This document shows, in pieces, positions 13,494 to 42,897 of a DNA stretch of 64,000 nucleotides. A model generated the notes under the pieces. It was not told the origin of the DNA and searched no databases. It saw nothing but the letters and a program-made list of their open reading frames with translations. This DNA comes from an archaeon (lineage in GTDB: Archaea > Nanobdellota > Nanobdellia > SCGC-AAA011-G17 > GW2011-AR17). The DNA is taken from assembly GCA_043814545.1 (NCBI GenBank), contig JBDRJY010000014.1, positions 7,617 to 71,616 of the forward strand, written 5' to 3'. The position numbers and the translations under genes are program-made. Each line of letters starts with the position of its first letter. Positions within the stretch are counted from its first letter, which is position 1.

Positions 13494-14339
13494 ATGTTAT
13501 ATACTTGGTTATCTTTTGAAAGGCTAATGAAACATAATCTTAAGATAATTACAATCTTATTAGTCTTGTTTTTCTTGGCACAGTTTATTGGTTTGATAGT
13601 AACTTCAGCTTATATGATTAGCCCTGAGTTACCTTTGAACATTGAACGGCCTGAGATGGATGAAGGCACAACTTCAATTTCCTTGTTTATGTTAATAGTT
13701 GTTGTCACTTTGTTAGCAATTTTATTGATTAACATGAAATTTTTCAGGTTTTGGCGGTTATGGTTTTTAGCTAGTGTTTTTTTAACTTTGACAATAAGTT
13801 TTTTCGCTTTCATTAAGAACGAAACAGTTGCAATTGTTATGGCTTTAGTATTAGCTTTATGGAAAGTGTATAGGTCTAATATTATAATTCATAATTTGAC
13901 TGAAGTTTTCATTTATGGTGCGTTAGCAGTAATTTTTGCACCATTATTAAACATATTTTTCGTTGCAATTTTATTGGTAGCAATTTCTGTTTATGATTAT
14001 ATTGCTGTTAGAAAAACTAAACATATGATTAAGTTGGCTAAAGCGCAAAGTCAAGCAAAAGTTTTTGCAGGAATTTTGGTGCCTTATGGTAAAAAATCTG
14101 CGATTTTGGGAGGGGGTGACATTGCATTTCCGTTATTATTTGCTGCAGTGATAATGCAAGATTTTGGTTTGAGCTTATTTAATCCTATTACTTACATTGT
14201 ACCTGTTTGTGTTTCAATTGCGTTAGCGATTTTGTTTTTGAAAGGAGAACCAAAGAAGTTTTACCCGGCAATGCCTTATTTAACTGTAGGATGTTTTGTC
14301 GGTTATGGTTTAGTTTTATTATTTAGCGCAATCTTGTAA
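13494..14339 (+). CDS. Polytopic membrane protein, presenilin/signal-peptide-peptidase-like (A22 intramembrane aspartyl protease family)
   Basis: About 8-9 TM segments. A YD motif (ISVYDYIAV) and a GxGD motif (LGGGDIAFP) are present. A PAL-like motif (YPAMPYL) resembles SPP PALLYLVP. Confidence 0.5.
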   Translation: MLYTWLSFERLMKHNLKIITILLVLFFLAQFIGLIVTSAYMISPELPLNIERPEMDEGTTSISLFMLIVVVTLLAILLINMKFFRFWRLWFLASVFLTLTISFFAFIKNETVAIVMALVLALWKVYRSNIIIHNLTEVFIYGALAVIFAPLLNIFFVAILLVAISVYDYIAVRKTKHMIKLAKAQSQAKVFAGILVPYGKKSAILGGGDIAFPLLFAAVIMQDFGLSLFNPITYIVPVCVSIALAILFLKGEPKKFYPAMPYLTVGCFVGYGLVLLFSAIL

Positions 14340-18563: not shown

Positions 18564-19505
18564 TTAAGCTGATAATTCAGCATCAATAATTTCTTGGAAC
18601 GCACTCAACGGTTGTGCACCTACCAACGATATTCCGTTAATGAAAAATGCTGGCGTGCCAGAAACACCGTTACTTTGACCAATACCCATTTGTGCTGAAA
18701 CTGTATCAGCCATAGTATCTTCGTCAAGACAAGTGTTAAACGCTTCAGTGTCTAATCTCAATGCTTCAGCAGAAGATTTCAAACTGTCGACATCCAATGC
18801 ACCTTGGTCAGCAAACAATACATCATGGTATTCCCAGAACATTCCTTGCTCGTTTGCACAAAGTGAAGCTTCAGCAGCTTTCTGCGCATTAGCGTGGAAA
18901 CTTAACGGGAATTGCATGAAGACTACTCCAACTTCGTCATAAGCTTCAAGGACTTCCTCAATTGTTGTTGCACCTCTTGCACAGTATGGACATTCAAAGT
19001 CTGAAAATTCTATAATCAGAACTTCGCCGTCAGGGTTACCTCTTACAGTTAAACCAGTTGTATCAATTTCAACACGTTCAACTTCAGTAGGTTCAGTCTC
19101 GTCAGGGATATTAATGCCATTTGTCGTGTCTAAGACTGTCGGCATAAGCATTTTTCCATCTTTTGTAACATAAGATGTAAACTCTTTGCCACTAACAGTA
19201 ATTTTTAGTTTGTACATTCCGTATTCTTCGCTTACATCATTCAATTCTGCTTCAGCTAATCCACCTAACAAATTAATGTTAATATAATCCATTGTATCTT
19301 CTATAATTTGATCCTGGCTACCACTTGGTAAGGAAAAGGATCCGCCTAACACTACTGAGAAGACCAATAAAACTAATAATACACCTGTAGCAATTTGCCA
19401 TGGTAAAGCGTTTTTTGCAGAACGTAAAAATTTAACTTTATTTTTATGTTCTTTTAGAACTTCGTTTTTATGTTCACTCATATATTTCGCCTCCAATATA
19501 AACAA
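18564..19505 (-). CDS. Membrane-anchored thiol:disulfide oxidoreductase, DsbA-like thioredoxin fold, with N-terminal extracytoplasmic domain
   Basis: N-terminal TM. The FSDFECPYCARG CxxC active site sits in a DsbA-like context. Confidence 0.7.
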   Translation of the reverse strand: MFILEAKYMSEHKNEVLKEHKNKVKFLRSAKNALPWQIATGVLLVLLVFSVVLGGSFSLPSGSQDQIIEDTMDYININLLGGLAEAELNDVSEEYGMYKLKITVSGKEFTSYVTKDGKMLMPTVLDTTNGINIPDETEPTEVERVEIDTTGLTVRGNPDGEVLIIEFSDFECPYCARGATTIEEVLEAYDEVGVVFMQFPLSFHANAQKAAEASLCANEQGMFWEYHDVLFADQGALDVDSLKSSAEALRLDTEAFNTCLDEDTMADTVSAQMGIGQSNGVSGTPAFFINGISLVGAQPLSAFQEIIDAELSA

Positions 19506-22000: not shown

Positions 22001-22036
22001 GAAGTTTTTTAAATCTCTTTTTCTATATATAACATA

Positions 22037-22741
22037 ATGAAAAGGGGCCAGGCTACTTTATTAATTCTATTCGGTTTAATTGTAGTTGTTCTGTTGGTTA
22101 GTACATATTATTTATTTTATCAAGTTGATGTTGTTGAAGAAGTTACTCAAACCATTGTTGAAACTGAACAACAGGAAGAAATTTTTTTAGAATTGGAAAA
22201 TTGTATTGAATTAGTTGTAGTGGATTCTTTGATTCAGATTGGCGAAAATGGTGGCCTTTATAACGAAATGAATTATTTAGCTAATGAAGGTATTAATAAC
22301 GTTCCTGACGAAACGGAATTAAATGAAGAATTTTTAGAATTTTTTGAAACTTATGTTCCATACTGTTTATACTACGTGGATTACCAAGATTATGAAATTG
22401 AAAGTGGCGATGTTAAATCCGATGTTACCCTAACTGACAATAGTGTTAAGTTAGAGATAACTTATCCTTTACAATTAACAGGAGAAAACTCGTTTAGTAT
22501 TGCTGAACCGTTTTACTACGAATATGATATTCCGTTAAAAACTTACCTTGATGTTGCTAACGAAATTGTGAATGAATATTTGGTTAATAATAGAATGTGT
22601 CTAAGCTGTATTTCAACTATTGGCACAGAAAACGATTTAAACATTAATATGTTGTTCGAGGAAGAAGGACAACTTATCATAATTGAAGATGAAAATGTCG
22701 ACTTTAGCGAGGGGGTGTACTATTTTGCGTTTATGGTTTAG
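22037..22741 (+). CDS. Type IV pilin-like protein with archaeal class III signal peptide (paralog of 42145-42897)
   Basis: N-terminus MKRGQ|ATLLILFGLIVVVLLV has a K/R-G-Q motif directly preceding a hydrophobic helix. There is clear full-length similarity to the 42145-42897 product, e.g. ...NRMCLSCISTIGTENDLNINMLFEEEG versus ...NKLCVSCITDITLDYNLEINFENLDEG. Confidence 0.55.
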   Translation: MKRGQATLLILFGLIVVVLLVSTYYLFYQVDVVEEVTQTIVETEQQEEIFLELENCIELVVVDSLIQIGENGGLYNEMNYLANEGINNVPDETELNEEFLEFFETYVPYCLYYVDYQDYEIESGDVKSDVTLTDNSVKLEITYPLQLTGENSFSIAEPFYYEYDIPLKTYLDVANEIVNEYLVNNRMCLSCISTIGTENDLNINMLFEEEGQLIIIEDENVDFSEGVYYFAFMV

Positions 22742-24707
22742 CTTTTTGCTTTTATTATTAATCGTCCCAGGGGTTTTTGCTGCTGAGTGTGACTTGGAAG
22801 AGTACGAGTATCAAGGCGAACTGGTTATGCGTTGCAATGTTAATGAAAATATTGAAATCTTAGGCAACGGGATATACCTTTCACCTGACGATACAGAAGT
22901 AAGAACAACTGGTAGTTACCCTTTCACGTTTCGTTTGTCTGAATCTATTCAAACTGAAGAAGGTTTTGAAATAGATGTAACAACTGTTGAAACAGAATGG
23001 GTTAAAGGAAATATTGGCGAAGACGGTATTTTTCAGGGTATATCTTTAGCCGACACTTTTATTTCTGATTATAACCTTCCAGAAAATTTTGAGTTTAGTT
23101 ATTATGTTGTTGATGACATATTTGAAATTGAACACTTTGATACGTTTGAAGGTTATGAGTACGAAGGCCATACGTTAAACATTGCTGAAGATGGGGTTAT
23201 AAAAATTCAAAATGTTGGCGGCGAATGGTTAATTTCTGGCTACAATTTTATGATTGACGACGTTCTTGTTAAAAGTTATAACTCTGCAACTTATGATGGG
23301 GTTAACGACAAATTTCTTTTTGATTTAGGCGGAGATTTTGAATATGCAGGAATAGATTTTTCGTCAGGGCAAGAATTTCAATTATTATCTTATGAAATTG
23401 ATGGTGTAAGCAGGGAAGATTTTCTTTATAATTTTTACCAGGGAGAACTTTTTACGAACGAAAACGATTATTTAATGTTATTAAATGAAGAAATCTCTCA
23501 AACAGAAATTGTACCTTTCATTTTAAACGGTGAAGGTTTAACTTTTGATGTTACATCAGACTCTCTTTTGTTTAACTTTGATGACCGAAACGATTATTTT
23601 AAGGGTGCTTTATCACAAGGTTCATTATTTTTTGAAGATTTAGGGACAGCACATGTTTACGGTAACGCAGAAATCCAAAACGGTCCGTACAAAACTTATT
23701 TTTATGAGGAAGGACGAACAGAAATGGAACTTCTGCAACGACCAGGTTATAATGTTTACAAAACCGGTTACGACATTGTCCCATTAAGTTTAGGTTATGT
23801 TAACGAAGATGGTTATGTTGAAGAAATTTTATACAAAGAATCTACTGCAAGTAGAGGGGTAGACAGTTTAACTGTTTCAACAGCTGAATTTTATGTTGGT
23901 GAAGATTACGTAACAGACGTTTCTGTAGAAACACTTTTAACGGAACCAGAAATTTCGACAGCGTTCTTAACTGATGAATCTTTTGAACCGTTGGAAGGTG
24001 AAGAACCAGAAGTAAGTTGTTTAGGTTTAAGTTTTGACGAATGCCTTTACAATCCGAAAGGCCACGGTTGTTTTTGGTCCGGCGGTTGTACAGAATGTAA
24101 TGTAATAATGTGCGAGATGTATAGTTCTCAGGAAGAATGTGTGAGAGACCCTTGTGGTTTTAACGATATCAGTTCAAAATGTTCGTTTGAAGGTGCGTGT
24201 ATGTCGGTAGATAGGATAGAAGATACTGTTGCAGCATCAGAGATTTTAGCTGTGGCAAATATATACAAGGAAGCTAGTGTCCATTACAGTCAAGGTAATT
24301 GGTTAATGGAAGAGCCAGAAGTGAACGGTTTAGATTGTTCAGGCTTTGCGCAAAAACCTTGGCACGAGTTGGGTGTAGCAATGCCGGCACGTGCGTCAAC
24401 ACAAGCAATGGTAACTCGGGATGATGGTACGACTGAAGTTAAAATGGAAAATTATTTTAACCATATTGAATGTAAAGATTTAAAACCTGCTGACATGCTA
24501 ATTTACCGTCCTAAACCAGGTGTTGAAAGGGATGGTCATGTAGTTTTGGTCAAAGAAAGTTATGGTAACAGTGGCGCAGTGATTATACATTCTAAAGGTG
24601 GAACAGGTGTTACTGAAGATTTTTTGATAGACGTTGAAAATGTTTATTCTCCTTTAGGGTTAGAGTTAAAGGATTGTTGGCGGCATAAGAGCGTTGTTTA
24701 TGAATAA
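22683..24707 (+). CDS. Large secreted Cys-rich protein with C-terminal NlpC/P60 cysteine peptidase domain
   Basis: Signal peptide present; an alternative in-frame TTG start at 22725 gives MRLWFSFLLLLLIVPGVFA|AEC. The C-terminus has NGLDCSGF (catalytic Cys), ...ADMLIYRP...DGHVVLV...AVIIHSKG (His triad region) and a Cys-rich linker. Overlaps the upstream pilin-like gene. Confidence 0.7.
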   Translation: MKMKMSTLARGCTILRLWFSFLLLLLIVPGVFAAECDLEEYEYQGELVMRCNVNENIEILGNGIYLSPDDTEVRTTGSYPFTFRLSESIQTEEGFEIDVTTVETEWVKGNIGEDGIFQGISLADTFISDYNLPENFEFSYYVVDDIFEIEHFDTFEGYEYEGHTLNIAEDGVIKIQNVGGEWLISGYNFMIDDVLVKSYNSATYDGVNDKFLFDLGGDFEYAGIDFSSGQEFQLLSYEIDGVSREDFLYNFYQGELFTNENDYLMLLNEEISQTEIVPFILNGEGLTFDVTSDSLLFNFDDRNDYFKGALSQGSLFFEDLGTAHVYGNAEIQNGPYKTYFYEEGRTEMELLQRPGYNVYKTGYDIVPLSLGYVNEDGYVEEILYKESTASRGVDSLTVSTAEFYVGEDYVTDVSVETLLTEPEISTAFLTDESFEPLEGEEPEVSCLGLSFDECLYNPKGHGCFWSGGCTECNVIMCEMYSSQEECVRDPCGFNDISSKCSFEGACMSVDRIEDTVAASEILAVANIYKEASVHYSQGNWLMEEPEVNGLDCSGFAQKPWHELGVAMPARASTQAMVTRDDGTTEVKMENYFNHIECKDLKPADMLIYRPKPGVERDGHVVLVKESYGNSGAVIIHSKGGTGVTEDFLIDVENVYSPLGLELKDCWRHKSVVYE

Positions 24708-25504: not shown

Positions 25505-26266
25505 TTACTTTTCTCTAATTTTTTTCAAAATAAAATATATTATTAGCAGTTGGATTAAAATTAATATTAAAATAATTAATAACAAATAATTGTATTCTTT
25601 TTGTTCAATAATTTCAAAAATATTTTCTGTTGACGCTTTTCCCCCGTCGTAAATTAATAAAATGTATAAGATATAATGTCCTACATCAATATCTTCAGGC
25701 AATGTAATTATTTTTATAAAATCTAAATTATTTCCTATAATCTTAGATTCTTTTTCTGTTAAAATAACATTATCATTTAAATCTATAATTGAATAATTTA
25801 ATGTTACGTTATTTGTTCCAGGTTCACCAAAGTTAGTTAATGATATGTTGATAAATAATATTTCGCTTAGACTAATTTTATTTTTAATTAGATTTGATTT
25901 TATATCAAATAGTGGTCCTTTAACAATACAGCTTTTATTTTCAATTGGCTTGTGTTTAGTTGTTTCACATTTATTTCTATCATGACAAATTCTTATCTCT
26001 TGATCATTATCACAATTTGCCCAATGTGTACAAGTCCAATTCTCTTGACATAGTAAGACGCGATTTAATATTCCGCTTCCGCGACCTGTAATTTCTTCTT
26101 CGATAGCTTCCCCAATTTCTTCTGTTGGCGCCGCTACAACTGTTAAAGAAACTTCACCAGTTGCCATGGCACTTATTTGATTATAAACAAAAAAACTGTT
26201 CATCGTTGTAATAATTAAGAAAACTATTATAAGAATCAATAAATTTTTATTTTTTAAATTATCCAT
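25505..26266 (-). CDS. Membrane-anchored surface protein (N-terminal TM/signal, Cys-containing ectodomain, C-terminal TM); last gene of the surface operon
   Basis: N-terminal hydrophobic segment and C-terminal YNYLLLIILILILIQLLIIYFILKKIREK. Confidence 0.4.
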   Translation of the reverse strand: MDNLKNKNLLILIIVFLIITTMNSFFVYNQISAMATGEVSLTVVAAPTEEIGEAIEEEITGRGSGILNRVLLCQENWTCTHWANCDNDQEIRICHDRNKCETTKHKPIENKSCIVKGPLFDIKSNLIKNKISLSEILFINISLTNFGEPGTNNVTLNYSIIDLNDNVILTEKESKIIGNNLDFIKIITLPEDIDVGHYILYILLIYDGGKASTENIFEIIEQKEYNYLLLIILILILIQLLIIYFILKKIREK

Positions 26267-26642
26267 TTTTAAAATTTATTTGTAATTTCCCTTCATATTC
26301 TCCATATGCTGCACTTTCAGGCACTGAAATTGAAACTTCGACAATTTTATTTTCATTTGGCATCATAACAAAATTATTTTCGGGTAATACAACCCAATGT
26401 TTTAATTTGCCTTTAGCCTTTAAATTAACATAAGAAATTTGATTAGAATTAGTAATGTTAACCATTCTAGTTCCAATACCTGCAGGTGTAATTGCCCCAA
26501 AATAAAGTGCATCATTATCAACATTAAATCCCGTATAATTTGCAACTGTTAAATACATGCCAATCTCATGATTTGGCGTATCTAAGGTAAGAAAAAAAAC
26601 TAAAGACGCAATTAAAATAACTAATATCAATTTAGCTTTCAT
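26259..26642 (-). CDS. Small secreted protein (signal peptide)
   Basis: Likely start is the MKAKLILVILIASLVFF Met within the tracked ORF 26259-26681. Tightly packed in the operon. Confidence 0.4.
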   Translation of the reverse strand: MKAKLILVILIASLVFFLTLDTPNHEIGMYLTVANYTGFNVDNDALYFGAITPAGIGTRMVNITNSNQISYVNLKAKGKLKHWVVLPENNFVMMPNENKIVEVSISVPESAAYGEYEGKLQINFKNG

Positions 26643-27762
26643 TTTTACGCCTCTTAAGCATTCTGTATACAAAAATTGCAATGATTATAATTAAAACTCC
26701 AATTATTACTAAATTCCAGGAGAAAATATTTCTTTTAACTTGAATTGGAATGTTTGTTTCCATTGATTTATCTGCAAAATATAAAGTTGTGTGTAAAATA
26801 TAATCACCTACATTAACATTAGTCGTATCCCAATAAGCGTTAAGATTTTTTTCTAATAAGGGCTTAAGTTCAATAGATTCAGTTTTTATTATCCCAATTT
26901 CTTGATTATTATCTAAGATTTGCAGTTCAGCATAAACATCTGTAATTTTTTCATTCCATAAACTTTTTAACGAAATTTCAATTTTATTAATTGTATTTAC
27001 TTGAAAGGCTGTAGGAACAATCTTGAGGATTTCAATAAGCAAATCTCCAATTTGGAAACTTTTTTCTGTTTCAATACTTTCTTCATCAAAATAAACTTTA
27101 GCTTTTACGATATATTCACCGGCGCTTAGATCTGTAGGTGTCCATTTTGTCGAAATTTCACCTGATTCTTTTGTATTAATTTTTATACTGTTTGTAGTTA
27201 ATATCGCAACTTCAGTACCATTAGAATCTGTAATTCTGATTGTTGCATCAACATTATTTAAATTTTCAGTACCTAAATTTTGTACGTCAAGTGTTATTTC
27301 TGTTTCTTTATTCAAATTAGTTTTTTCAATAGAAAGTTTAGTAGAAATATATTTTCCAGGGTAAGGGACAAGAATAAGAAACTGTGATTCTACGCCTGTA
27401 ACTGCTCCTACACCGCCTAAGTTTTCTGGAATAGCTTCTACAACACCTATTCTTGTATCATAAATTCCTGGTTTTTCAATGTTTTCAGGCAAATTAACTT
27501 CTACCACAAAACTTTTAATTTCGTTTTCGTTAAGCGTTGTTGAAGTTTCAGAAAGACTCACATATCCAGCTAACTCTCCTTTTGTATACATCTGAACAGT
27601 TGTCGGATTTTCTCTATTAATTATATTGTAAGTATATGTAGAATCTAAGTTTGGTTCAAAATTAACAGTGACGCGGCTGGGACTAATCCCTATAGCTAAT
27701 CCGCTTTTTGTAACTAATAAAATCAAAATTCCGAAGATTATAATTTTAATTATTTTGTTCAT
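26632..27762 (-). CDS. Cell-surface protein with CARDB/DUF11-like beta-sandwich repeats, signal peptide and C-terminal TM anchor with basic tail
   Basis: Signal peptide present. Repeated ...QNLGTENLNNVDATIRITDSNG... NxG-type motifs. C-terminal VIIGVLIIIIAIFVYRMLKRRKNES. Confidence 0.5.
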   Translation of the reverse strand: MNKIIKIIIFGILILLVTKSGLAIGISPSRVTVNFEPNLDSTYTYNIINRENPTTVQMYTKGELAGYVSLSETSTTLNENEIKSFVVEVNLPENIEKPGIYDTRIGVVEAIPENLGGVGAVTGVESQFLILVPYPGKYISTKLSIEKTNLNKETEITLDVQNLGTENLNNVDATIRITDSNGTEVAILTTNSIKINTKESGEISTKWTPTDLSAGEYIVKAKVYFDEESIETEKSFQIGDLLIEILKIVPTAFQVNTINKIEISLKSLWNEKITDVYAELQILDNNQEIGIIKTESIELKPLLEKNLNAYWDTTNVNVGDYILHTTLYFADKSMETNIPIQVKRNIFSWNLVIIGVLIIIIAIFVYRMLKRRKNES

Positions 27763-28352
27763 TATGATTCGTAAGCAGTGAACACTAAGTTTTCACTTTT
27801 TAATCCGGCTGGTTCATCGCCAGGAGGATTAATCAAAAGTTCAATCTGAACTTCGTCATTTGTGTCAACATAATTAAATTCGCAAACAGCTACTATTGGG
27901 TCAGTGCCAGGAACATTTGTCCATGTTATGGTGCTACAAGCAGGATTCCCCGGAACACCTTCACCAGCAACACTAGCAGCAAATTGAAAAGAACTTGTGT
28001 TATCTCCTCCACCAGTCCCGTTAAACAATGGCGTACTGTTTACATCTCTTGCGATTGTAAAATTAACTTCAACACTACCATCATTTCTTATTAAAAATGG
28101 GACAGGATTATTATCAGTAGTATTATCAGTCCCTCCAGCTGTAATATTTCCGAAATTAACATTATTTGTAACAAGAGTTATCTGTGCTACTTGTAACACA
28201 TTAACTTGTGCTATACCAACAGGCATACCTGTAATACTGTTGAAACCAGGTATATTCCAGTTAAAAATGAGAATAAAACCAACTAAAAGAATAATAAATA
28301 ATTCTATTCCAATCCTAATTTTGTTTTGTTTTGGCATTTCATAATTAATCAA
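27762..28352 (-). CDS. Small secreted Thr/Asn-rich protein, paralog family member 1 (conserved C-terminal ...EPAGLKSxxxxFTA motif)
   Basis: N-terminal hydrophobic segment after a charged n-region (..KQNKIRIG|IELFIILLVGF, possibly class III-like). The C-terminus GDEPAGLKSENLVFTAYES is shared with the 28349 and 31598 products. Confidence 0.5.
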   Translation of the reverse strand: MINYEMPKQNKIRIGIELFIILLVGFILIFNWNIPGFNSITGMPVGIAQVNVLQVAQITLVTNNVNFGNITAGGTDNTTDNNPVPFLIRNDGSVEVNFTIARDVNSTPLFNGTGGGDNTSSFQFAASVAGEGVPGNPACSTITWTNVPGTDPIVAVCEFNYVDTNDEVQIELLINPPGDEPAGLKSENLVFTAYES

Positions 28353-28909
28353 GCTTGCGTTGCTGTAAATGTTACAGTTGAACTTTTTAATCCGGCTGGT
28401 TCAGCATTAGGAATTGTGACCCCTATATCAACTTCAACTTGATCTCCAGTATCGGTAAAGGGAAGATCTGCAATTATTAAAATAGGATTACCGCTTGATG
28501 ACATGTTTGTTAAATTTACAATTGATCCAGTAGGACAACTAATTTCTCCACTACCGCAGGCGAATTGATAAGAGCTATTTGGATTTGGAGCTGTTGTAAA
28601 TATATCAGTTGCTTGAATTGTGACATTTACATTTACAGTCCCATCATTTTGTAATTGAAACGGCGCCGGACTATCATTAAGAGTATCATTATTGACATTG
28701 TTATCCATTGGTCCAAAATCGATAGAAGCGAGTGGTAACGAAATATAAGTTGTTGCAGTTACAGTAACATTTGCTACACCTGTAGGTGTAGAGGTTTGCG
28801 CTCCTGTAATAAGAGAAATACTTTCTTTATTTGATATAAGAACACAACTTCCAATAGTTAGCAGGAGCATGATAAAAATAAAAAATTTGAGTTTTAAGTT
28901 AATTTTCAT
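28349..28909 (-). CDS. Small secreted Thr/Asn-rich protein, paralog family member 2
   Basis: Signal peptide present. The C-terminus NAEPAGLKSSTVTFTATQA is shared. A 4-nt overlap with the downstream gene indicates translational coupling. Confidence 0.5.
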   Translation of the reverse strand: MKINLKLKFFIFIMLLLTIGSCVLISNKESISLITGAQTSTPTGVANVTVTATTYISLPLASIDFGPMDNNVNNDTLNDSPAPFQLQNDGTVNVNVTIQATDIFTTAPNPNSSYQFACGSGEISCPTGSIVNLTNMSSSGNPILIIADLPFTDTGDQVEVDIGVTIPNAEPAGLKSSTVTFTATQA

Positions 28910-29153
28910 TTAATACCTCCTCAAATTTGATGGCGTCATTTTTTGTTTCAAAGTTATTTGATGTTTGAGGATTAACATATAATTGTACCTTGCCAGAATT
29001 TGTAGTATCTGAAGACCTAACATTTGTTTGATTAGAAACCAACCCCAAAATTAAAATAATTACTAAAAATAAGATTAGAAGAACTAAAACTTTTTTATTT
29101 ATTTGCATCCCCCTTTTACCCCCTTTATTTTTAAGATTAAATATAGCTTTCAC
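28899..29153 (-). CDS. Small membrane-anchored protein (about 70-84 aa)
   Basis: MQINKKVLVLLILFLVIILILGLV is an N-terminal TM followed by a short polar tail. Confidence 0.35.
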   Translation of the reverse strand: MKAIFNLKNKGGKRGMQINKKVLVLLILFLVIILILGLVSNQTNVRSSDTTNSGKVQLYVNPQTSNNFETKNDAIKFEEVLNEN

Positions 29154-29201
29154 GCATTTAAAGGTATAGATTAATTTTCAAACTGAATCATCATTAAGAA
29201 G

Positions 29202-29690
29202 TTAAAGTTTTAAACTTATTAGTTCAAAAAAGGAATCAAATATAGTCTTTCTTTTCCAAACAATTTTATTTTTTCCATCATAATATTGGCTGGTAGTAAT
29301 GCTATTATTAGGAATATTTAATATATATTTAACAGTTTGACTTTTGCCTGGTTCAAGATAAAATACAATTTTGTTCTTATAACTTAATTCATCTATATTA
29401 TAAGTTAGCCACTCTGCCATAGGCCTATCACTTGTAATTATAATTTTCATTGGATATGGATAAAGGTTATTAAAATGCATATTCCGATAAGCACTTAACG
29501 AATTTATAGGGATGTTTCCAAAATGCAGTTTATTTTCATCAAGATTTAAACTAATATGGTCATCTTCTACAATATTAACATCCATGGGGTAATATATTGT
29601 TTCTTCAATTAGAACTTTGAAGTTTAAAATTAACGCAGTACCCAAACCAATTATAAAAATTATTACGAAAATTAAAATGATTTTTTTCAT
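29202..29690 (-). CDS. N-terminally membrane-anchored protein (162 aa)
   Basis: MKKIILIFVIIFIIGLGTALIL followed by a soluble domain. Sits in the operon. Confidence 0.4.
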   Translation of the reverse strand: MKKIILIFVIIFIIGLGTALILNFKVLIEETIYYPMDVNIVEDDHISLNLDENKLHFGNIPINSLSAYRNMHFNNLYPYPMKIIITSDRPMAEWLTYNIDELSYKNKIVFYLEPGKSQTVKYILNIPNNSITTSQYYDGKNKIVWKRKTIFDSFFELISLKL

Positions 29691-29694
29691 GATT

Positions 29695-30846
29695 TCACCT
29701 TTTCTTTCTTAGTAGGACAATAAGGAGGATTAGTGTTATTAAAAGTAGCCCGCTTGATGCAATCAAAGCTACCACTATCCAATCTTGGTTTTCAAAAATA
29801 AGATTATTTCCTTGATATTCCTCAACCTTGACTTCAAATTCACTTACTGTTTCTATCTCATCATAAGACAATTTTATTTTCAAAGTATAATTGCCAGGCA
29901 TTATATCATTTAAATCTAAACTTAAAGACAAATCTTTTTCACTAATAGCATTAAAAATAAATGAGTTAAGATTTGTTTTTGTTATCAAAGAAGATTCATC
30001 ATATAACCCAACTTCAATTTCAACATCTAAATCTTCAATCCAATAATTAAATGTTTTTAACGTAATAGTATTGATAACTTGACTATTTAATTTTTTTGGT
30101 ACGAGATCTAAAATTTCAATTTCTTTTTTTGCAATAATAAAATTTGCAATGTTTGAGGAACTTTCTTCCTTATCGTATTCTGTATATAAAACTAAATTAT
30201 AAAGGCCCAGATCCATAGCAGTTGTATCGGTTGACACTAATACGGATTCACTTGAATCAGGAAATAAATAATTCAAAGATTCAATTTCAACTTTTTTATT
30301 AAAACCTTCATCATTTGTTATTTGAAAATAACCGTCTACTGTGTTAATAACTTCTGTACCTATGTTACTGATTGTAGCTTTTAGTTCTGCAAAATCTCCT
30401 ACATTTTCAATTACCACTTCATCTATTTCTATTTTCAAAAATTTATCCGGATAAGGTGCATTAGTTGTAATAGGTATTTTCAGCGCTACAGTTGCGCCGA
30501 TATCTCCACTTGATCCAAATGGGACTAGATAAAATTTAATTAAAGCAATCTGCACGTCCCCAAATTCATTAAGTTCAGGTATAGTTAAACTGAAATCTAC
30601 ATCTTCACTTTCATAAGCTCCAACAAGAATTTTATCTGATGGAAAATTAAAGTATTCTTCATAATCGCTTTCAAGGGTAATTTCAATTATACTTTCTACT
30701 GCTAATTCATTTGTAACTGTTAGCGTAAACTCTTCTATTTCTCCTGGAGCATATCCTATGTTTATTTTTGCAGGATTAATTAACAGTGCATTTACAGAAA
30801 TAGATAAAATGGCTAAAAATAATATTATTATAATAATTTTTTTCAT
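29695..30846 (-). CDS. Cell-surface protein with CARDB/DUF11-like repeats, signal peptide and C-terminal TM anchor with basic tail
   Basis: Signal peptide present. ISNIGTEVINTVDGYFQITNDEG NxG motifs. C-terminal IVVALIASSGLLLITLILLIVLLRKKR. Confidence 0.5.
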   Translation of the reverse strand: MKKIIIIILFLAILSISVNALLINPAKINIGYAPGEIEEFTLTVTNELAVESIIEITLESDYEEYFNFPSDKILVGAYESEDVDFSLTIPELNEFGDVQIALIKFYLVPFGSSGDIGATVALKIPITTNAPYPDKFLKIEIDEVVIENVGDFAELKATISNIGTEVINTVDGYFQITNDEGFNKKVEIESLNYLFPDSSESVLVSTDTTAMDLGLYNLVLYTEYDKEESSSNIANFIIAKKEIEILDLVPKKLNSQVINTITLKTFNYWIEDLDVEIEVGLYDESSLITKTNLNSFIFNAISEKDLSLSLDLNDIMPGNYTLKIKLSYDEIETVSEFEVKVEEYQGNNLIFENQDWIVVALIASSGLLLITLILLIVLLRKKR

Positions 30847-39162: not shown

Positions 39163-40200
39163 ATGCGTTACATAATATTATTACTTTTATTGATGCCAGG
39201 AGTTACAGCTAGTTTAACAATCAATGAAATCATGCCTAACCCGATAGGTGCAGACAATGCACCACAACCAAGAGGGGAATGGGTCGAATTATATAATCCA
39301 ACATCTGAAAAAATATATTTAGAAGATTATTATTTAACAGATTTAATAGAATATCATAAGTTAGAGATTTTAGAGGAATACATAGAACCTTACCAATATC
39401 TAACTATTTATCGAGATGAAGACGGCGATTTTGCATTAAACAATAATGGTGATGAAGTTAAACTATTTCATAATAAAACCCTAATAGACAAAATGGAATA
39501 TAAAAAATCTGAACAGTCATTATCTATAGCAAAAACCGAACAAGGTTGGATGATACAAACACCTTCACTAAACAAAGAAAATTATCCTTATGATTACACA
39601 CCGCAATGCGATTGGGAATTAGAGATTTGGTTAAACGAAACAATAACCTTAGACCCTTATTTTAAAGTTAAAATAAACAACGTTTATGGCGGTAAGAACA
39701 ACCTTACATTAACGCGTACAATTTTAAATCAAAAAGAAATAGAACGTTTATACGAAAATTTAACATTTTCTATCATTACAAAAACATCTTACACTTACAA
39801 ACCTCAACTTAAACCTGGCCCTCATAGAATACAAGCAGCAATAGAATCTTTAAATTGTAATGATACAAATATGGACAATAATAAAGTAGAAACCTTGGTA
39901 TATATCCCTGAAACAGTAAATTCATTAGAAATAGTAAATTCTTTAAATACTACAGGCATAAATTATTTAAACCCTACGGGAAACATTGTTTATGAGTCAA
40001 AGGGTAGGAAAGCAAAAACTTATGCAGTTTACGCCTTTTGCGCTATAATAATAGTATTAATTGTATATTGGGGAATTAAAGATGAAATCAAAAAAAATCA
40101 TAGCACGAATCATAGTCGAAGTTCTAGGTGCACCAAAAGAACACGTCGAAAAAACAATGCAACAGATAATAGAAAATCTAAAGCAAGACAAAGATCTTAA
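39163..40200 (+). CDS. Secreted lamin-tail-domain (LTD) protein with C-terminal TM anchor
   Basis: Signal peptide present. LTINEIMPNPIGADNAPQPRGEWVELYNPTSEKIYLEDYYLTD is the LTD signature. There is a C-terminal TM VYAFCAIIIVLIVYWGI. The last roughly 40 codons are low-complexity basic and overlap the next gene, so the true stop may lie earlier, or there is a frameshift or sequencing issue. Confidence 0.5.
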   Translation: MRYIILLLLLMPGVTASLTINEIMPNPIGADNAPQPRGEWVELYNPTSEKIYLEDYYLTDLIEYHKLEILEEYIEPYQYLTIYRDEDGDFALNNNGDEVKLFHNKTLIDKMEYKKSEQSLSIAKTEQGWMIQTPSLNKENYPYDYTPQCDWELEIWLNETITLDPYFKVKINNVYGGKNNLTLTRTILNQKEIERLYENLTFSIITKTSYTYKPQLKPGPHRIQAAIESLNCNDTNMDNNKVETLVYIPETVNSLEIVNSLNTTGINYLNPTGNIVYESKGRKAKTYAVYAFCAIIIVLIVYWGIKDEIKKNHSTNHSRSSRCTKRTRRKNNATDNRKSKARQRS

Positions 40201-40501
40201 ACTTTTAGAAACAAATGTCCATGATTTGGAAGAACAAGAGCATCCTAACGTACCAAATGTAAAATTATATTCTACGTTTACAGAAATTGAACTTGAAACA
40301 ACAGAGTTAAAGAAAATTATTAGTTTAGCGTTTGATTACATGCCATCTAATATTGAAATCATAGAACCGGCAGGCATGGACATTGATTTGAACGAAGTTA
40401 GTGACATCTTAAATGATTTATTGGCAAGGTTACACCAATATGATTCAATCATGAAAAATTTGCACGCTGAAAATACAATCTTAAAAAGTCAGAAAAAATA
40501 G
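40082..40501 (+). CDS. Hypothetical cytoplasmic protein (about 140 aa)
   Basis: Start chosen at MKSKKIIARIIVEVLGAP within the tracked ORF 40061-40501. No recognised motif. Confidence 0.35.
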   Translation: MKSKKIIARIIVEVLGAPKEHVEKTMQQIIENLKQDKDLKLLETNVHDLEEQEHPNVPNVKLYSTFTEIELETTELKKIISLAFDYMPSNIEIIEPAGMDIDLNEVSDILNDLLARLHQYDSIMKNLHAENTILKSQKK

Positions 40502-40503
40502 TT

Positions 40504-42144
40504 TTATTGTGAATCTAGGAAACTGGAAGCTTCGTTGTTACTGTGTACAGGCATTATGCAATTATTATCTTCACACTGGCCATAATCTGTTTCGCCATTT
40601 TCTTTAATTTCAATTATATTATTAACGTTACTATTTTTTTCTAGGATTGTTAAATCAATTTCAAGAGGCGTTACATCCATTCCTTTCAAAGTATAAAGTT
40701 GAGGTTTACCGTCGACCATATGTATAAAAGTTTGTTGTTCAATTACTTCATGTATTGAATCAGCAAGATCTATTATGGCACCTTCAGTAACTATTATGTC
40801 AACAGAATCATCTTCATCTAATTCTACATAAGTTTCACCTATCAAAGTTTCAACAATAGGTTCATTTTCAATGGGTTCAATTTCTTCTTTAACCCAGACA
40901 ACTAACATCGTTGTAACACCTTCACCTTCAACAACATAATTATTATTATCATTTAAACAATGGTTAACAAAGTTAGTTGTAAAATCTTTAGTTTTATCAG
41001 AACAAGAACTAAGACGTAAATCTTTATGGTTAGCATTGTTAATTATTTCTAAACCGGTTTCAATATTAAGTTCAAAAATAGTCACAGTAGCTTCCGGCCC
41101 AATATAATATTCTATGTCTGAAATAATTCTTAAATAAGAATCGGCTGGAGTATCAATAAAAAGCTGTTCGCCATTAGATCTTGTCCATACAAAATCCCCA
41201 CTAAAATATAAACCTGTAGCATATTTTTGGATAAGCATTTGACCACCATAGGGTTCAATAGTATAACTTCCTTTAGATATGCCATTCTCATCATATTGTA
41301 ATATTTTAAATTCTCTATTCTCAGTGTCAACATAAACATAACCTTCAGCGTATCGTATCATACCACCTTCAGGAATTTCATAATATTCATCAATGAAAAA
41401 GTAAGTTCCACCGTCTGAACCAGCATAAATTGTAGCTTCAATAAGGTTACCTTCTTTATCATATTTAACATAACTACCTTCACCAACATTAAGGTAAGGT
41501 GGCCTAATACCTTCAATCTCAATGTTAGCTTCAGCATCAGCAGTAAATGTAACAAACTCATCATCAGATTGTAAATTTAGGTTTTCGCTGGTTACCAAAT
41601 TAGCGCCTTCAATGTCTAAAAAATATTCTAAGTCAAATTCTCCTTCGCCTAAATTAAGCTCGGCATTAATAATATTACCTTCATCATTAAAATCAACATC
41701 ACCCTCAGCTTTATTTTCTTGCATAAGAGTTTGGATTTGTTTTGCTTGCCCCCAAAGTTCGATTATTTGATCAATGTCAGGATTATTTTCCATGGCTTTT
41801 CTCAGCATAGCTTCTTTTGCGGCATCAACAGGATTTGCAACATATTGGTAAGCTTGAAAAATTGTATTGTATACTTCTTCAAGGTCGGGATTTTTGTCAA
41901 GAACTTGCGTTTGAAACTGTGATTGAAGTTCGCCCATGGCAGCAGCTTTTGTATTTAAAACAAAACCAACTACTTTAGCAGCTTTAGGGTCAAGTTGCGA
42001 CAGCTGTGATGTTCCTAAAGAGATTAAATAGTTTCCAGCACCTTGCGATTTGACAGACATTGCGCTTGATAACGGGTCAAAAGTTGCAATGCTAAATGCA
42101 CTAACTAGGAACAATGCCAACATTATTGCTAAAACTTTTTTCAT
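40504..42144 (-). CDS. Large secreted protein (546 aa, signal peptide); partner of pilin-like paralog B
   Basis: MKKVLAIMLALFLVSAFSIA signal peptide. The start abuts the stop of the 42145-42897 gene. No catalytic motif recognised. Confidence 0.5.
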   Translation of the reverse strand: MKKVLAIMLALFLVSAFSIATFDPLSSAMSVKSQGAGNYLISLGTSQLSQLDPKAAKVVGFVLNTKAAAMGELQSQFQTQVLDKNPDLEEVYNTIFQAYQYVANPVDAAKEAMLRKAMENNPDIDQIIELWGQAKQIQTLMQENKAEGDVDFNDEGNIINAELNLGEGEFDLEYFLDIEGANLVTSENLNLQSDDEFVTFTADAEANIEIEGIRPPYLNVGEGSYVKYDKEGNLIEATIYAGSDGGTYFFIDEYYEIPEGGMIRYAEGYVYVDTENREFKILQYDENGISKGSYTIEPYGGQMLIQKYATGLYFSGDFVWTRSNGEQLFIDTPADSYLRIISDIEYYIGPEATVTIFELNIETGLEIINNANHKDLRLSSCSDKTKDFTTNFVNHCLNDNNNYVVEGEGVTTMLVVWVKEEIEPIENEPIVETLIGETYVELDEDDSVDIIVTEGAIIDLADSIHEVIEQQTFIHMVDGKPQLYTLKGMDVTPLEIDLTILEKNSNVNNIIEIKENGETDYGQCEDNNCIMPVHSNNEASSFLDSQ

Positions 42145-42897
42145 TTATGCATACCTGCTTGCAAACACGAACTGGAAATCTTCGTCGTAAACTTGCGAAT
42201 TTTTATCTGTTATCATAAACAATGTGCCTTCATCTAAATTTTCAAAATTTATTTCTAAATTATAATCTAGTGTAATATCAGTAATACAGCTAACGCAAAG
42301 TTTGTTATCATATATTTGATTTTCTATGATAAAGTTTAATGCTTCATGTAATTGAAACAAATAAATATTTTGATTTAAACTAAAATCATTTATTCTATAT
42401 TCAATAGAATTATATTTAACAGATATTGGCCAATAAATATCCCACGTTACCAAATCTTCAATAACAACAATAGGTTCAATATTGCCATAACTTAAATCAA
42501 AATTTTCATAATCTTTAACACAATTTTGGTAATTAGCTTTCATGTAAGACGCTAAATCATTTTCCCAGACTGTAAGATCAACAACATTATTTTGTCCTTT
42601 ATCATAAAGGTAAGGTACAGCATAAATATCATATTCTAAAAATGATAATGGTGTTTCGTAAAGATAACCTCCAGTTAAACCTAAATTATATACAGCATCA
42701 TTGCTTAAATCATATAAACAAGAATAAATTTGGTCTTTCAGTTCTTGAACTTCGTTAGGTAAAACTGATTCTTCGACGAACCCGGACTTTTGAAACATAT
42801 CAACCAATTCACTACGAAAAAAGAAACCTAAAATTATTATAATAAATAAAATTAGACCTAGAATAATTAAAATTGTAACTTGACCTTTTTTTGGCAT
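42145..42897 (-). CDS. Type IV pilin-like protein with archaeal class III signal peptide (paralog of 22037-22741)
   Basis: MPKKGQ|VTILIILGLILFIIIIL. Full-length similarity to the 22037 product, e.g. LGLTGGYLYE versus IGENGGLYNE, and a shared C-terminal CxSCI motif. Confidence 0.55.
   Translation of the reverse strand: MPKKGQVTILIILGLILFIIIILGFFFRSELVDMFQKSGFVEESVLPNEVQELKDQIYSCLYDLSNDAVYNLGLTGGYLYETPLSFLEYDIYAVPYLYDKGQNNVVDLTVWENDLASYMKANYQNCVKDYENFDLSYGNIEPIVVIEDLVTWDIYWPISVKYNSIEYRINDFSLNQNIYLFQLHEALNFIIENQIYDNKLCVSCITDITLDYNLEINFENLDEGTLFMITDKNSQVYDEDFQFVFASRYA

Follow-up and report, generated by a model that had tools for sequence, protein, structure and literature searches.

A prepilin-like gene family paired with genes for large secreted proteins in DPANN archaea

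A two-gene unit, in which a small gene whose product has a prepilin-like N-terminus is directly followed by a gene for a large Sec-exported protein, is widespread in DPANN archaea, yet it has no entry in Pfam or NCBIfam. Two such units, cassettes A and B, lie in the window, by which we mean the whole 64-kb stretch of archaeal DNA that was analysed. We give slightly better than even credence to the reading of the small protein as a pilin-like adaptor, by which the secreted cargo translated along with it is tethered or presented.

Two cassettes, related in their small genes

The preliminary description of this DNA, made from the letters alone, placed two small homologous ORFs in the window, each with a large neighbor, and all four ORFs are confirmed (Table 1).

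Table 1. Features of the two cassettes, with positions in the window
Feature	Position	Strand	Basis
TATA-like box TTTTTAAAT	22005..22013	+	24-32 nt 5' of the ATG of small gene A; read from sequence
Small gene A, 234 aa, family member	22037..22741	+	ORF, homology, dN/dS
Large partner C, 670 aa from ATG 22695	22695..24707	+	ORF, gene-caller starts, orthologs
Cys-rich segment of partner C	24018..24200	+	10 Cys in 61 residues
Candidate NlpC/P60-like papain-fold peptidase domain, C-terminal in partner C	24324..24704	+	Weak Pfam match and motifs
Large partner D, 546 aa	40504..42144	-	ORF, Sec-type signal peptide
Small gene B, 250 aa, family member	42145..42897	-	ORF, homology

Small proteins A and B begin MKRG↓QATLLILFGLIVVVLL and MPKKG↓QVTILIILGLILFIII, where the arrow marks a predicted cleavage site. 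They align over nearly their full length (BLASTP, 24% identity, E 2e-11) and find each other when all ORFs of the window are compared by phmmer (E ~1e-13), a comparison that brought up no third paralog. The GG and C-x-S-C-I motifs previously ascribed to both proteins are indeed common to them. Class III cleavage is predicted before Q5 in A, behind the leader MKRG, and before Q6 in B, behind MPKKG. The Q is followed by 25 hydrophobic residues in A and by 24, a hydrophobic helix, in B, and position +5 is Leu in both. The hydrophobic helix of A (residues 5-30) gives way to a variable linker (31-43) and then to an alpha/beta extracytoplasmic domain; the conserved residues are C56, G72, G73, C110, C188-x-x-C191 and D218, while the CxxC of the small proteins is not invariant. 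Neither A nor B matched a pilin or class III model at E<=1, and a PMBR match of A (E 0.077) was discarded as noise.

Small gene A is under purifying selection (dN/dS 0.14-0.30 against orthologs). The spacing of the TATA-like box upstream of it fits an archaeal promoter and suggests a leaderless or short-leader mRNA for the cassette A pair; a scan for sigma-70 promoters was set aside as not applicable to an archaeon. Small gene B begins 20 nt past the stop of a PEP synthase gene.

The length of 674 aa first given for large partner C is that of the mechanical ORF, which starts at the first TTG (22683), but gene callers applied to orthologs, and NCBI, favor ATG 22695 or 22689 (670 or 672 aa). From the ATG starts, the gene overlaps small gene A by 47-53 nt (47 nt from 22695), and the overlap is kept in two related genomes. 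Its signal peptide is Sec-type, MSTLARGCTILRLWFSFLLLLLIVPGVFA↓AEC. Partner C had also been called Cys-rich, which is true of one segment (10 Cys within residues 442-502 of the 670-aa form) but less so of the protein overall, whose content is modest (16 Cys). All 10 are conserved in orthologs 87% and 50% identical to it, and dN/dS values of 0.20-0.33 again indicate purifying selection. Relatives are few: a search of 5.8 billion proteins brought up three, one of them being partner C itself, and the N-terminal ~410 aa have no known relatives.

The C-terminus of partner C carries the candidate hydrolase domain. Its Pfam match, the only one found for this protein, is weak (PF00877, E 7e-4, 20.0 bits, under the gathering cut-off of 23), and phmmer against PDB sequences gave no match to an NlpC/P60 chain. 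The motifs of the domain are NGLDCSGF (with the candidate nucleophile Cys), PARASTQ, LKPADML, RDGHVVLV and IIHSKGG, all conserved in orthologs, and the combination of a DCSG Cys with a downstream His that is typical of papain-like enzymes (NGLDCSGF, RDGHVVLV, IIHS) is kept in the 87% and 50% orthologs. The pair lies between ValRS and HhH-GPD, and it occupies the same place beside ValRS in the relatives that carry these orthologs. A DsbA-like gene adjoins cassette A.

In cassette B, the ATG of large partner D abuts the TAA of small gene B (TAAATG, a 0-nt gap). The claim that a large secreted protein directly follows each small gene is therefore upheld, with overlap in the one cassette and abutment in the other. 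Partner D has a Sec-type signal peptide (MKKVLAIMLALFLVSAFSIA...), only 4 Cys, no C-terminal anchor and no Pfam family that could be found. It belongs to the largest of the partner families encoded beside family genes (34 of ~90 partners), which has a common module of ~200-280 aa. Similarity between C and D is not significant (BLASTP E 0.012), and profile HMM and hhalign comparisons were negative, so homology of the two large partners was rejected. The cassettes had been regarded as paralogous. This is right for the small genes, but since the large proteins are unrelated in sequence, the duplication does not extend to the whole cassette.

A large family with a conserved N-terminus

A word-index search with A alone as query found only 2 relatives, an underestimate in view of an exhaustive profile search, which gave 7,465 clusters at E<=1e-3 and 4,681 at E<=1e-10 (50%-identity clusters). 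No Pfam match was found in 127 family members scanned (E<=0.01), nor any NCBIfam match in 18, and the names seen for members in the sources are all "hypothetical". Neither the family nor the pairing is described in any paper that was found, and the earlier statement that this is not a described system accordingly stands. Some members are long forms of 620-965 aa, fused into a single polypeptide, for which Pfam gave nothing useful. A viral or mobile origin was rejected in view of the lack of relatives in the viral contigs of IMG/VR and by the stable ValRS and HhH-GPD synteny.

The N-terminal consensus of the family is K-[KR]-[G/A/S]↓Q-[VI]-T-x-F-[IV]-I-x-G, followed by ~20 hydrophobic residues. 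Position +1 is Q in 147 of 150 representatives, and in every one of those 147, position -1 is G, A or S (113, 21 and 13 cases, respectively). Position -2 is K or R in 140 of the 147, the logo has K at -3, and beyond the junction it has T at +3, F at +5 (Phe in 134/147), I at +7 and G at +9. Outside the N-terminus, mean column identity is 27%. A and B, like the family logo, have a short basic leader that ends in G, A or S, with a hydrophobic stretch of ~20 residues directly after it, and, judged by these sequence features, the family N-terminus is a class III (prepilin-type) signal. What had been read from KRGQ is evidently a property of the family and not a chance match.

The fold is less telling. 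In the model of small protein A, a break modeled with low confidence (residues 31-43) sets the hydrophobic helix apart from the globular domain. Classical pilins have a continuous alpha-1 helix, and the difference counts against a pilin-like adaptor. Weak structural matches of the small protein include the minor pilins PilX, GspK and PilV, but the fold is not clearly pilin-like, and the comparison found no thioredoxin-like or chaperone fold.

The window encodes no secretion ATPase, platform protein or prepilin peptidase, and a regular-expression search of 80-84 related loci (up to 10 kb on either side of the family gene) found no ORF with a T2SSE-type Walker motif. In archaea that have been studied, too, pilin genes often lie apart from the assembly machinery (PMC3875500). 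Pilin-like neighbors do occur, in 6 of 82 loci (L008, L015, L031, L071, L073 and L078), next to one subfamily. The arrays consist of three or four small genes on the same strand, after the pair and within 3.6-8.4 kb, whose products have class III-type N-termini with the same [GA]↓Q junction; Pfam recognizes no pilin among them, and the window has no such neighbors. Because ATPase, platform protein and prepilin peptidase are lacking from the window, and the ATPase motif from the surroundings of related loci, a pilus-tip role is something that we infer, and the one direct support for it comes from these arrays.

Pairing across DPANN genomes

An alignment of 18 sequences served to gather 80 DPANN genome loci (Woesearchaeota, Pacearchaeota and Nanoarchaeota), in which a gene was counted as paired if a signal-peptide protein of at least 450 aa was encoded within 120 nt downstream. 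This was the case for 84 of 106 family genes, as against 50 of 785 other genes (odds ratio 56, p 4.5e-61), and the median gap between small gene and large partner is -4 nt. Conservation of the pairing in related genomes, which the preliminary description had proposed to check by synteny, is thus borne out, the place beside ValRS included. Most pairs, among them both pairs of the window, stand alone among housekeeping genes.

The two members of a pair vary together. The distances among small proteins and among large ones are correlated (Mantel rho 0.355, as against 0 +/- 0.025 in 1,000 permutations), and in 59 of 85 cases, a small protein and its nearest homolog from a different locus have partners that are homologous too, compared with a background of 4.7%. 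Simple inheritance of the pair as a unit may account for this. The partners are otherwise diverse: a genome carries many pairs of adaptor and cargo with unrelated cargoes, many partners have 40-70 Cys and several 0-2, and against Pfam, partner representatives gave only weak Ig-like matches. They agree in having no anchor of their own, as a C-terminal transmembrane segment is found in 0 of 81 complete partners, versus 12 of 81 other signal-peptide proteins (p 3e-4).

What the pairs may do

If the small protein is a pilin-like adaptor, each cassette would represent a two-gene module that recurs across DPANN archaea. Its first gene would supply the adaptor: a short basic leader ending in Gly, cut by a class III peptidase before the near-invariant Gln, an N-terminal hydrophobic helix that is highly conserved, a linker that varies and, outside the cell, a disulfide-containing alpha/beta domain. 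The second gene, whose translation is coupled to that of the first through overlap or abutment, would supply the large Sec-exported protein, which has no membrane anchor. Adaptor and partner would be produced in equal amounts, the outer domain of the adaptor would bind its own partner, and the pilin-like helix would then hold the complex at the cell surface. Perhaps a type IV-like filament receives the complex at its tip, along with a set of minor pilin-like proteins whose genes lie elsewhere, or perhaps the adaptor is itself a short membrane-rooted stalk. Activity would come from the cargo. That of cassette A may be an NlpC/P60-type cell-wall or amide hydrolase, plausibly directed against the host envelope, and that of cassette B a non-enzymatic surface or adhesion protein.

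One might instead take the small protein for a plain membrane anchor or stalk, its leader cut or not, that is never polymerised and holds its partner as SlaB holds SlaA in Sulfolobus S-layers, with no type IV filament. This would suit partners that have no anchors of their own, the failure to find pilus machinery in the window or the related loci, the flexible linker between helix and globular domain, the fold that is not clearly pilin-like, and the many pairs per genome with their unrelated cargoes. We consider it unlikely all the same, though still to be reckoned with, in that a plain anchor would not conserve G/A/S at -1, Q at +1 and T/F/I/G at +3/+5/+7/+9 in proteins otherwise ~25% identical, and the neighboring small pilin-like genes carry the same [GA]↓Q junction. 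The prepilin-type N-terminus would likewise be left unexplained if the small protein were a membrane-tethered maturation factor (a foldase, disulfide helper or export chaperone) that takes no part in the final structure. Coupled 1:1 synthesis, conserved Cys pairs including CxxC in the small protein, the nearby DsbA-like gene and the very Cys-rich partners, with 40-70 Cys, are what such a factor might lead one to expect. However, many partners, among them D with its 4 Cys and several with 0-2, are not Cys-rich and are paired nonetheless, the CxxC is not invariant, and the structure comparison found neither a thioredoxin-like nor a chaperone fold, so that this explanation seems improbable.

The hydrolase domain of partner C, and polymorphic partners beside a conserved small gene, call to mind a toxin-immunity or effector-immunity pair, in which the NlpC/P60-bearing protein would be a secreted toxin from which the small protein protects the producer. 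But an archaeon has no peptidoglycan needing protection, and most partners, D included, have no recognizable toxin domain. Also, the small gene comes first and belongs to one big homologous family, whereas immunity proteins usually come after the toxin and vary with it. An immunity function is therefore very hard to credit. As to mere chance, whether a juxtaposition of unrelated genes or an artifact of ORF calling, it might be suspected from the unrelated large proteins of the two cassettes. In practice it is refuted by the pairing statistics, with their odds ratio of 56 (p 4.5e-61), by the synteny conserved in relatives, by purifying selection on the cassette A genes and by the co-variation of small and large proteins.

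The pilin-like adaptor may be part of something more general. Tentatively, and with less than even confidence, we suggest that DPANN archaea possess a modular surface display, in which one huge adaptor family plugs varied Sec-exported cargoes (adhesins, giant Cys-rich proteins, wall hydrolases), one adaptor for each, onto a type IV filament or pseudopilus, and that the pairs are the main determinants of host recognition and host attack. Little is known about the ways in which DPANN archaea recognize a host, attach to it and breach it, and most of their surface proteins are unannotated. By the motif K-[KR]-G↓Q-[VI]-T-x-F-[IV]-I, thousands of putative adaptor genes can be recognized, each pointing to an adjacent large secreted partner, which could provide a catalog of candidate host-interaction proteins, including the putative secreted NlpC/P60-type hydrolase described here. 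The finding would also add a split design of adaptor and cargo to the uses of the prepilin pathway known in archaea, which so far comprise pilins and binding proteins.

Parts of this design have counterparts elsewhere. In SlaA/SlaB of Sulfolobales, the genes are adjacent, as here, and a smaller, membrane-anchored protein holds a large anchorless secreted one, as it may do here. The anchor of SlaB is a C-terminal helix, whereas here it would be an N-terminal prepilin-type helix, and the DPANN cargoes are many and different within a genome, an apparent enzyme among them, with no homology found to SlaA/SlaB. In the Sulfolobus bindosome, as in the display proposed here, a prepilin-type signal and its machinery serve the surface display of functional proteins and not a classical pilus. 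There, the functional sugar-binding protein itself bears the class III signal, but here a separate putative adaptor bears it while the cargo uses a Sec signal, and only the long forms of the family, at 620-965 aa, are fused. These long forms resemble in design the modular pilins PilB and PilC of Streptococcus sanguinis, in which a functional, adhesive module is fused to a pilin module, whose N-terminus brings it to the filament; the window cassettes, by contrast, split adaptor and cargo into two polypeptides, and there is no sequence relation.

At the N-terminus, there is a likeness to the Epd pilins (DUF361) of Methanococcus maripaludis, processed by EppA, which also have a short leader ending in Gly, Gln at +1 and a hydrophobic helix, and whose genes also lie dispersed, at a distance from the ATPase locus. 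The leader ending in Gly with Gln at +1 is known from experimental study of EppA substrates of Methanococcus (PMC3875500), and an Epd-like type IV filament "system 1" has been reported in DPANN (preprint 10.64898/2026.04.22.720090). Unlike Epd pilins, the family has no match to DUF361 or any other Pfam entry, its globular domain is far larger (~200 aa, alpha/beta), and it is coupled obligatorily to a large secreted partner, a feature absent from Epd. Moreover, +5 is Phe in the family but Glu in EppA substrates and bacterial pilins, which counts against a pilin-like adaptor.

In overall organization, the pairs call to mind the bacterial type IVa tip module (FimU-PilVWX with PilY1, and the GspHIJK tip of T2SS), where pilin-type small proteins occur beside a large anchorless Sec-exported protein that gives adhesion or sensing. 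The DPANN partners, too, are large non-pilin Sec proteins encoded beside pilin-type genes; three or four pilin-like genes lie in the operon of the pair at the six related loci, and minor pilins are among the weak structural matches. The resemblance comes without sequence or Pfam relation to PilY1 or the minor pilins, and no homology to the PilY1/PilC C-terminal domain was found. The pairs also differ from the bacterial module in having one dedicated adaptor per cargo, in being many per genome and mostly solitary, and in belonging to archaea. If modular display proves true, they would be an archaeal functional counterpart of the minor-pilin/PilY1 tip complexes, built from unrelated proteins.

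Cassettes A and B and their surroundings

The preliminary description had placed two small genes (A and B) in the window, each with a large gene directly after it (partners C and D), and all four are present in the ORF list, as tabulated below. The open reading frame of C begins with TTG at 22683, followed by ATGs at 22689 and 22695. In two related genomes the automatic annotation chose these ATGs, as did NCBI for the source genome; the protein is then 670-672 aa long and overlaps A by 47-53 nt. In cassette B, the junction between small gene and partner is TAAATG. Both partners begin with a Sec-type signal peptide (basic n-region, hydrophobic core of 15-20 residues, small residues thereafter).

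Positions in the window of the genes discussed
Feature	Position	Strand	Description
Small gene A	22037-22741	+	234 aa
Partner C	22683-24707	+	674 aa; overlaps small gene A
Small gene B	42145-42897	-	250 aa
Partner D	40504-42144	-	546 aa; abuts small gene B
PF06550 membrane protein	13494-14339	+	281 aa
DsbA/thioredoxin-domain protein	18564-19505	-	313 aa
Secreted/membrane gene block	25505-30846	-	seven genes: 253, 140, 376, 196, 186, 162, 383 aa
LTD protein	39163-40200	+	345 aa; just upstream of cassette B region
EVLGxPKEH protein	40061-40501	+	~146 aa; convergent with partner D

The two cassettes had been called paralogous. So they are with respect to the small genes: A and B align over nearly their full length (24% identity, E 2e-11), and phmmer against all ORFs of the window finds each to be the other's sole relative. 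The claim fails for the large genes, by BLASTP of C with D (E 0.012), by comparison of C with a profile of 23 relatives of D (E about 0.06-0.1, negative bits), and by hhalign (probability 0.1%). As judged from sequence, then, paralogy is limited to the small genes. Purifying selection acts on both cassette A genes (dN/dS 0.14-0.33).

Partner C is identical to a protein from an NCBI MAG; apart from itself, it has just two relatives in a set of 5.8 billion proteins. Its signal peptide leads into about 410 aa without relatives, after which come a stretch holding 10 conserved Cys and a C-terminal domain whose motifs (NGLDCSGF, PARASTQ, LKPADML, RDGHVVLV, IIHSKGG) are all kept in orthologs. Since the score against Pfam NlpC/P60 is just below threshold (20 bits against 23, E 7e-4), we call the domain NlpC/P60-like. 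Export of such a hydrolase-like domain by an archaeon that itself lacks murein would point to a target in the envelope of a host or neighbor.

The window (GC about 32%) carries archaeal housekeeping genes: those for TrmB, PheRS alpha/beta, ValRS, GluRS, aIF-2B, PEP synthase, FtsZ, deoxyhypusine synthase, and a wyosine radical-SAM enzyme. The DsbA-like protein (E 1e-24), whose gene adjoins ValRS and cassette A, would fit the extracellular disulfide formation needed by a Cys-containing adaptor and its partners. The 281-aa protein matches the presenilin/signal-peptide-peptidase family PF06550 (E 6e-8), as a GxGD-type intramembrane aspartyl protease; this is not a prepilin peptidase family, though the mechanistic class is common to both. 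Its gene recurs in L085, one of the related genome loci carrying family genes (all designated by L numbers), where the ortholog of C is 50% identical. The block of seven genes, which resembles two copies of a module of ~150 aa plus ~380 aa, is also found in L085 (12994-16355) and is missing from L003, the 87-90% relative, where the gene right after HhH-GPD is a PUA gene, with a Fic gene next; the block is a surface-protein island indel between close relatives. Its 376- and 383-aa products match WxLIP_HBD / CARDB, the former with a C-terminal TM. The secreted 345-aa protein is a further surface protein that brings its own anchor; it combines a lamin-tail domain (LTD, E 4e-14) with a C-terminal TM and a strongly basic tail. 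The EVLGxPKEH protein lies near family loci in at least 5 other genomes (e.g., L016 5088-5513, L015 4111-4572, L031 4866-5339), and the family gene of L015, L031, L069, and L078 has PCNA immediately upstream; lineage synteny, not a functional link, probably explains both vicinities.

A family with a prepilin-type N-terminus

A word-index search for homologs of A found just two relatives. When 1.84 billion cluster representatives were searched exhaustively by HMMER, a 4-sequence profile matched 7,465 clusters at E<=1e-3, of which 4,681 reach E<=1e-10 and 413 reach E<=1e-30. The top 150 cluster matches are nearly all 235-270 aa long and aligned end to end, and, with a single genome scanned for each species, more than 428 family genes were confirmed. 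The system had not been recognized as a described one, and this stands: there is no Pfam match among 127 members scanned and no NCBIfam match among 18, no paper was found on the family or the pairing, and every source name seen reads 'hypothetical protein'. One study finds signal peptides and transmembrane helices to be generally overrepresented among the lineage-specific hypothetical proteins of archaea (PMC9258230). No relatives were found in IMG/VR viral contigs. The best 80 loci come from MAGs labelled Woesearchaeota, Pacearchaeota, Nanoarchaeota, Nanoarchaeia, and in some cases 'uncultured Methanosarcinales' or 'archaeon', the last two with gene content that looks the same as elsewhere. 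The title 'uncultured Methanosarcinales archaeon' stands on MAGs with typical pairs (L009, L017, L033, L037, L044, L045, L049, and others), and on such DPANN-like loci it may be a placeholder misassignment.

The N-terminus of A, with its KRGQ, had been taken for a class III signal, and the whole family bears this out. Anchored on the Gln, 147 of the 150 representatives give K at -3 (127), R/K at -2 (140), G (113), A (21), or S (13) at -1, Q at +1 (all 147), V/I at +2, T (115) or S (24) at +3, F at +5 (134), I at +7 (116), and G (103) or A (39) at +9, with hydrophobic residues up to about +22; outside the N-terminus, column identity averages 27%. Because position -1 admits small residues only, -2 is basic, and a long hydrophobic stretch comes right after the junction, we regard this as a class III (prepilin) signal. 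Within the window, A and B alone have the pattern. The mature part of haloarchaeal archaellins likewise begins ...RG/QVGIGTLIVF... (slash, junction). The pilins of Methanococcus maripaludis processed by EppA are alike in their leader ending in Gly and conserved +1 Gln, but they have Glu at +5 where the family has Phe (PMC3875500). Epd-like 'system 1' machinery has been placed in methanogens and DPANN (2026 preprint 10.64898/2026.04.22.720090).

A confident AlphaFold2 model (127 sequences; pLDDT 91.4, pTM 0.78) starts with a helix (3-30) and a low-confidence linker (31-43), and continues through helices (44-70, 92-113), a sheet (120-163), and further helices (167-198) to strands (202-233). Q5, C56, G72, G73, C110, and D218 are nearly invariant, and most members have C-x-x-C at 188-191. 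The conserved Cys positions fit a disulfide-stabilized extracytoplasmic domain.

Pairing with unrelated secreted partners

That small and large genes go together in related genomes was confirmed in 82 loci in which ORFs were called and family genes located by HMM. The next ORF on the same strand is almost always large (about 480-3,300 aa) with a signal peptide. Within 120 nt downstream, 84 of 106 family genes have a gene for a protein of 450 aa or more with a signal peptide, as against 50 of 785 other genes in the same loci (odds ratio 56, Fisher p 4.5e-61). Gaps are most often -4 nt (23 cases, also the median) or -8 nt (10 cases), a pattern of translational coupling. In relatives whose orthologs of C are 87% and 50% identical, cassette A sits between ValRS and the HhH-GPD glycosylase with the long overlap kept; another family member has an identical arrangement beside ProRS in 24 contigs. 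In L005, L006, L008, L009, and L017, a conserved secreted protein of ~195 aa directly follows a D-like partner, forming a three-gene unit that cassette B of the window lacks.

The partners themselves split into several unrelated families. The largest, with 34 of about 90 partners, includes D and has a common module of ~200-280 aa; others are very rich in Cys (40-70, with the motif CCEKTxxGAWCQ), and there are giants of 1,000-2,300 aa with weak Ig-like matches. Similarity of small proteins nonetheless tracks that of partners (Mantel rho 0.355 vs 0.000 +/- 0.025, 1,000 permutations), and for 59 of 85 small proteins the nearest homolog from another locus is paired with a homologous partner (background, 4.7%). 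The pair is thus inherited and diversifies as a unit, which alone is no proof of physical binding. A C-terminal hydrophobic anchor is present in none of 81 complete partners and in 12 of 81 other signal-peptide proteins (300 aa or longer) from the same loci (p 3e-4); partners so built would, without a holder, escape into the medium.

At many loci, the family domain is the N-terminal third of a protein of 620-965 aa. In these long-form operons (L063, L076, L082, L041, and 11 other loci), that gene comes second, after one for a multi-TM protein of ~264 aa and before one for a giant secreted Cys-rich protein (1,000-2,300 aa, weak Ig-like matches); seven end with a further membrane protein of ~281 aa. 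They may be a more elaborate version of an adaptor-cargo system.

A proposed adaptor and its cargo

With modest assurance, we lean toward the small protein as a prepilin-type adaptor, which would be synthesized jointly with its cargo, bind it outside the cell, and keep it on a type IV-like filament or short surface stalk. The 64-kb window lacks a secretion ATPase, a platform protein, and a prepilin peptidase, and no ORF within 10 kb of any of 80 related loci has a secretion-ATPase Walker motif. This absence of nearby machinery, and also the flexible linker of the small protein, would suit the main rival, a static membrane anchor with no filament. We give that a minority chance, as it leaves unexplained the strong conservation of positions -1 to +9 and the identical junction in neighboring pilin-like genes. 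Such genes occur at six loci (L008, L015, L031, L071, L073, L078) in a conserved run of three or four, all small and with N-termini of class III type (for example KKG/QMKLSFGMIF, KRG/YLEISFSW, KG/QMKIQQTAF, KKA/QEEMVGFVL), on the strand of the family gene, 3.6-8.4 kb off, and typically directly after one or more Cys-rich partners. They have no Pfam match and are putative pilins by their N-terminal motif. Both cassettes of the window are dispersed, with no pilin-like neighbors.

Perhaps the small protein is instead a maturation factor for its partner, as the Cys-rich partners might lead one to think; many partners are Cys-poor, however, and we consider this unlikely. A toxin-immunity pair finds little support and is very improbable, and chance adjacency, also ill supported, is scarcely credible.

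The family, the design of one adaptor per cargo, and its scale in DPANN appear undescribed. The principle is already known: prepilin signals serve surface structures, and minor pilins carry a large adhesin. The layout of pilin-like series plus partner is reminiscent of the operon in bacteria where four minor pilins accompany PilY1.
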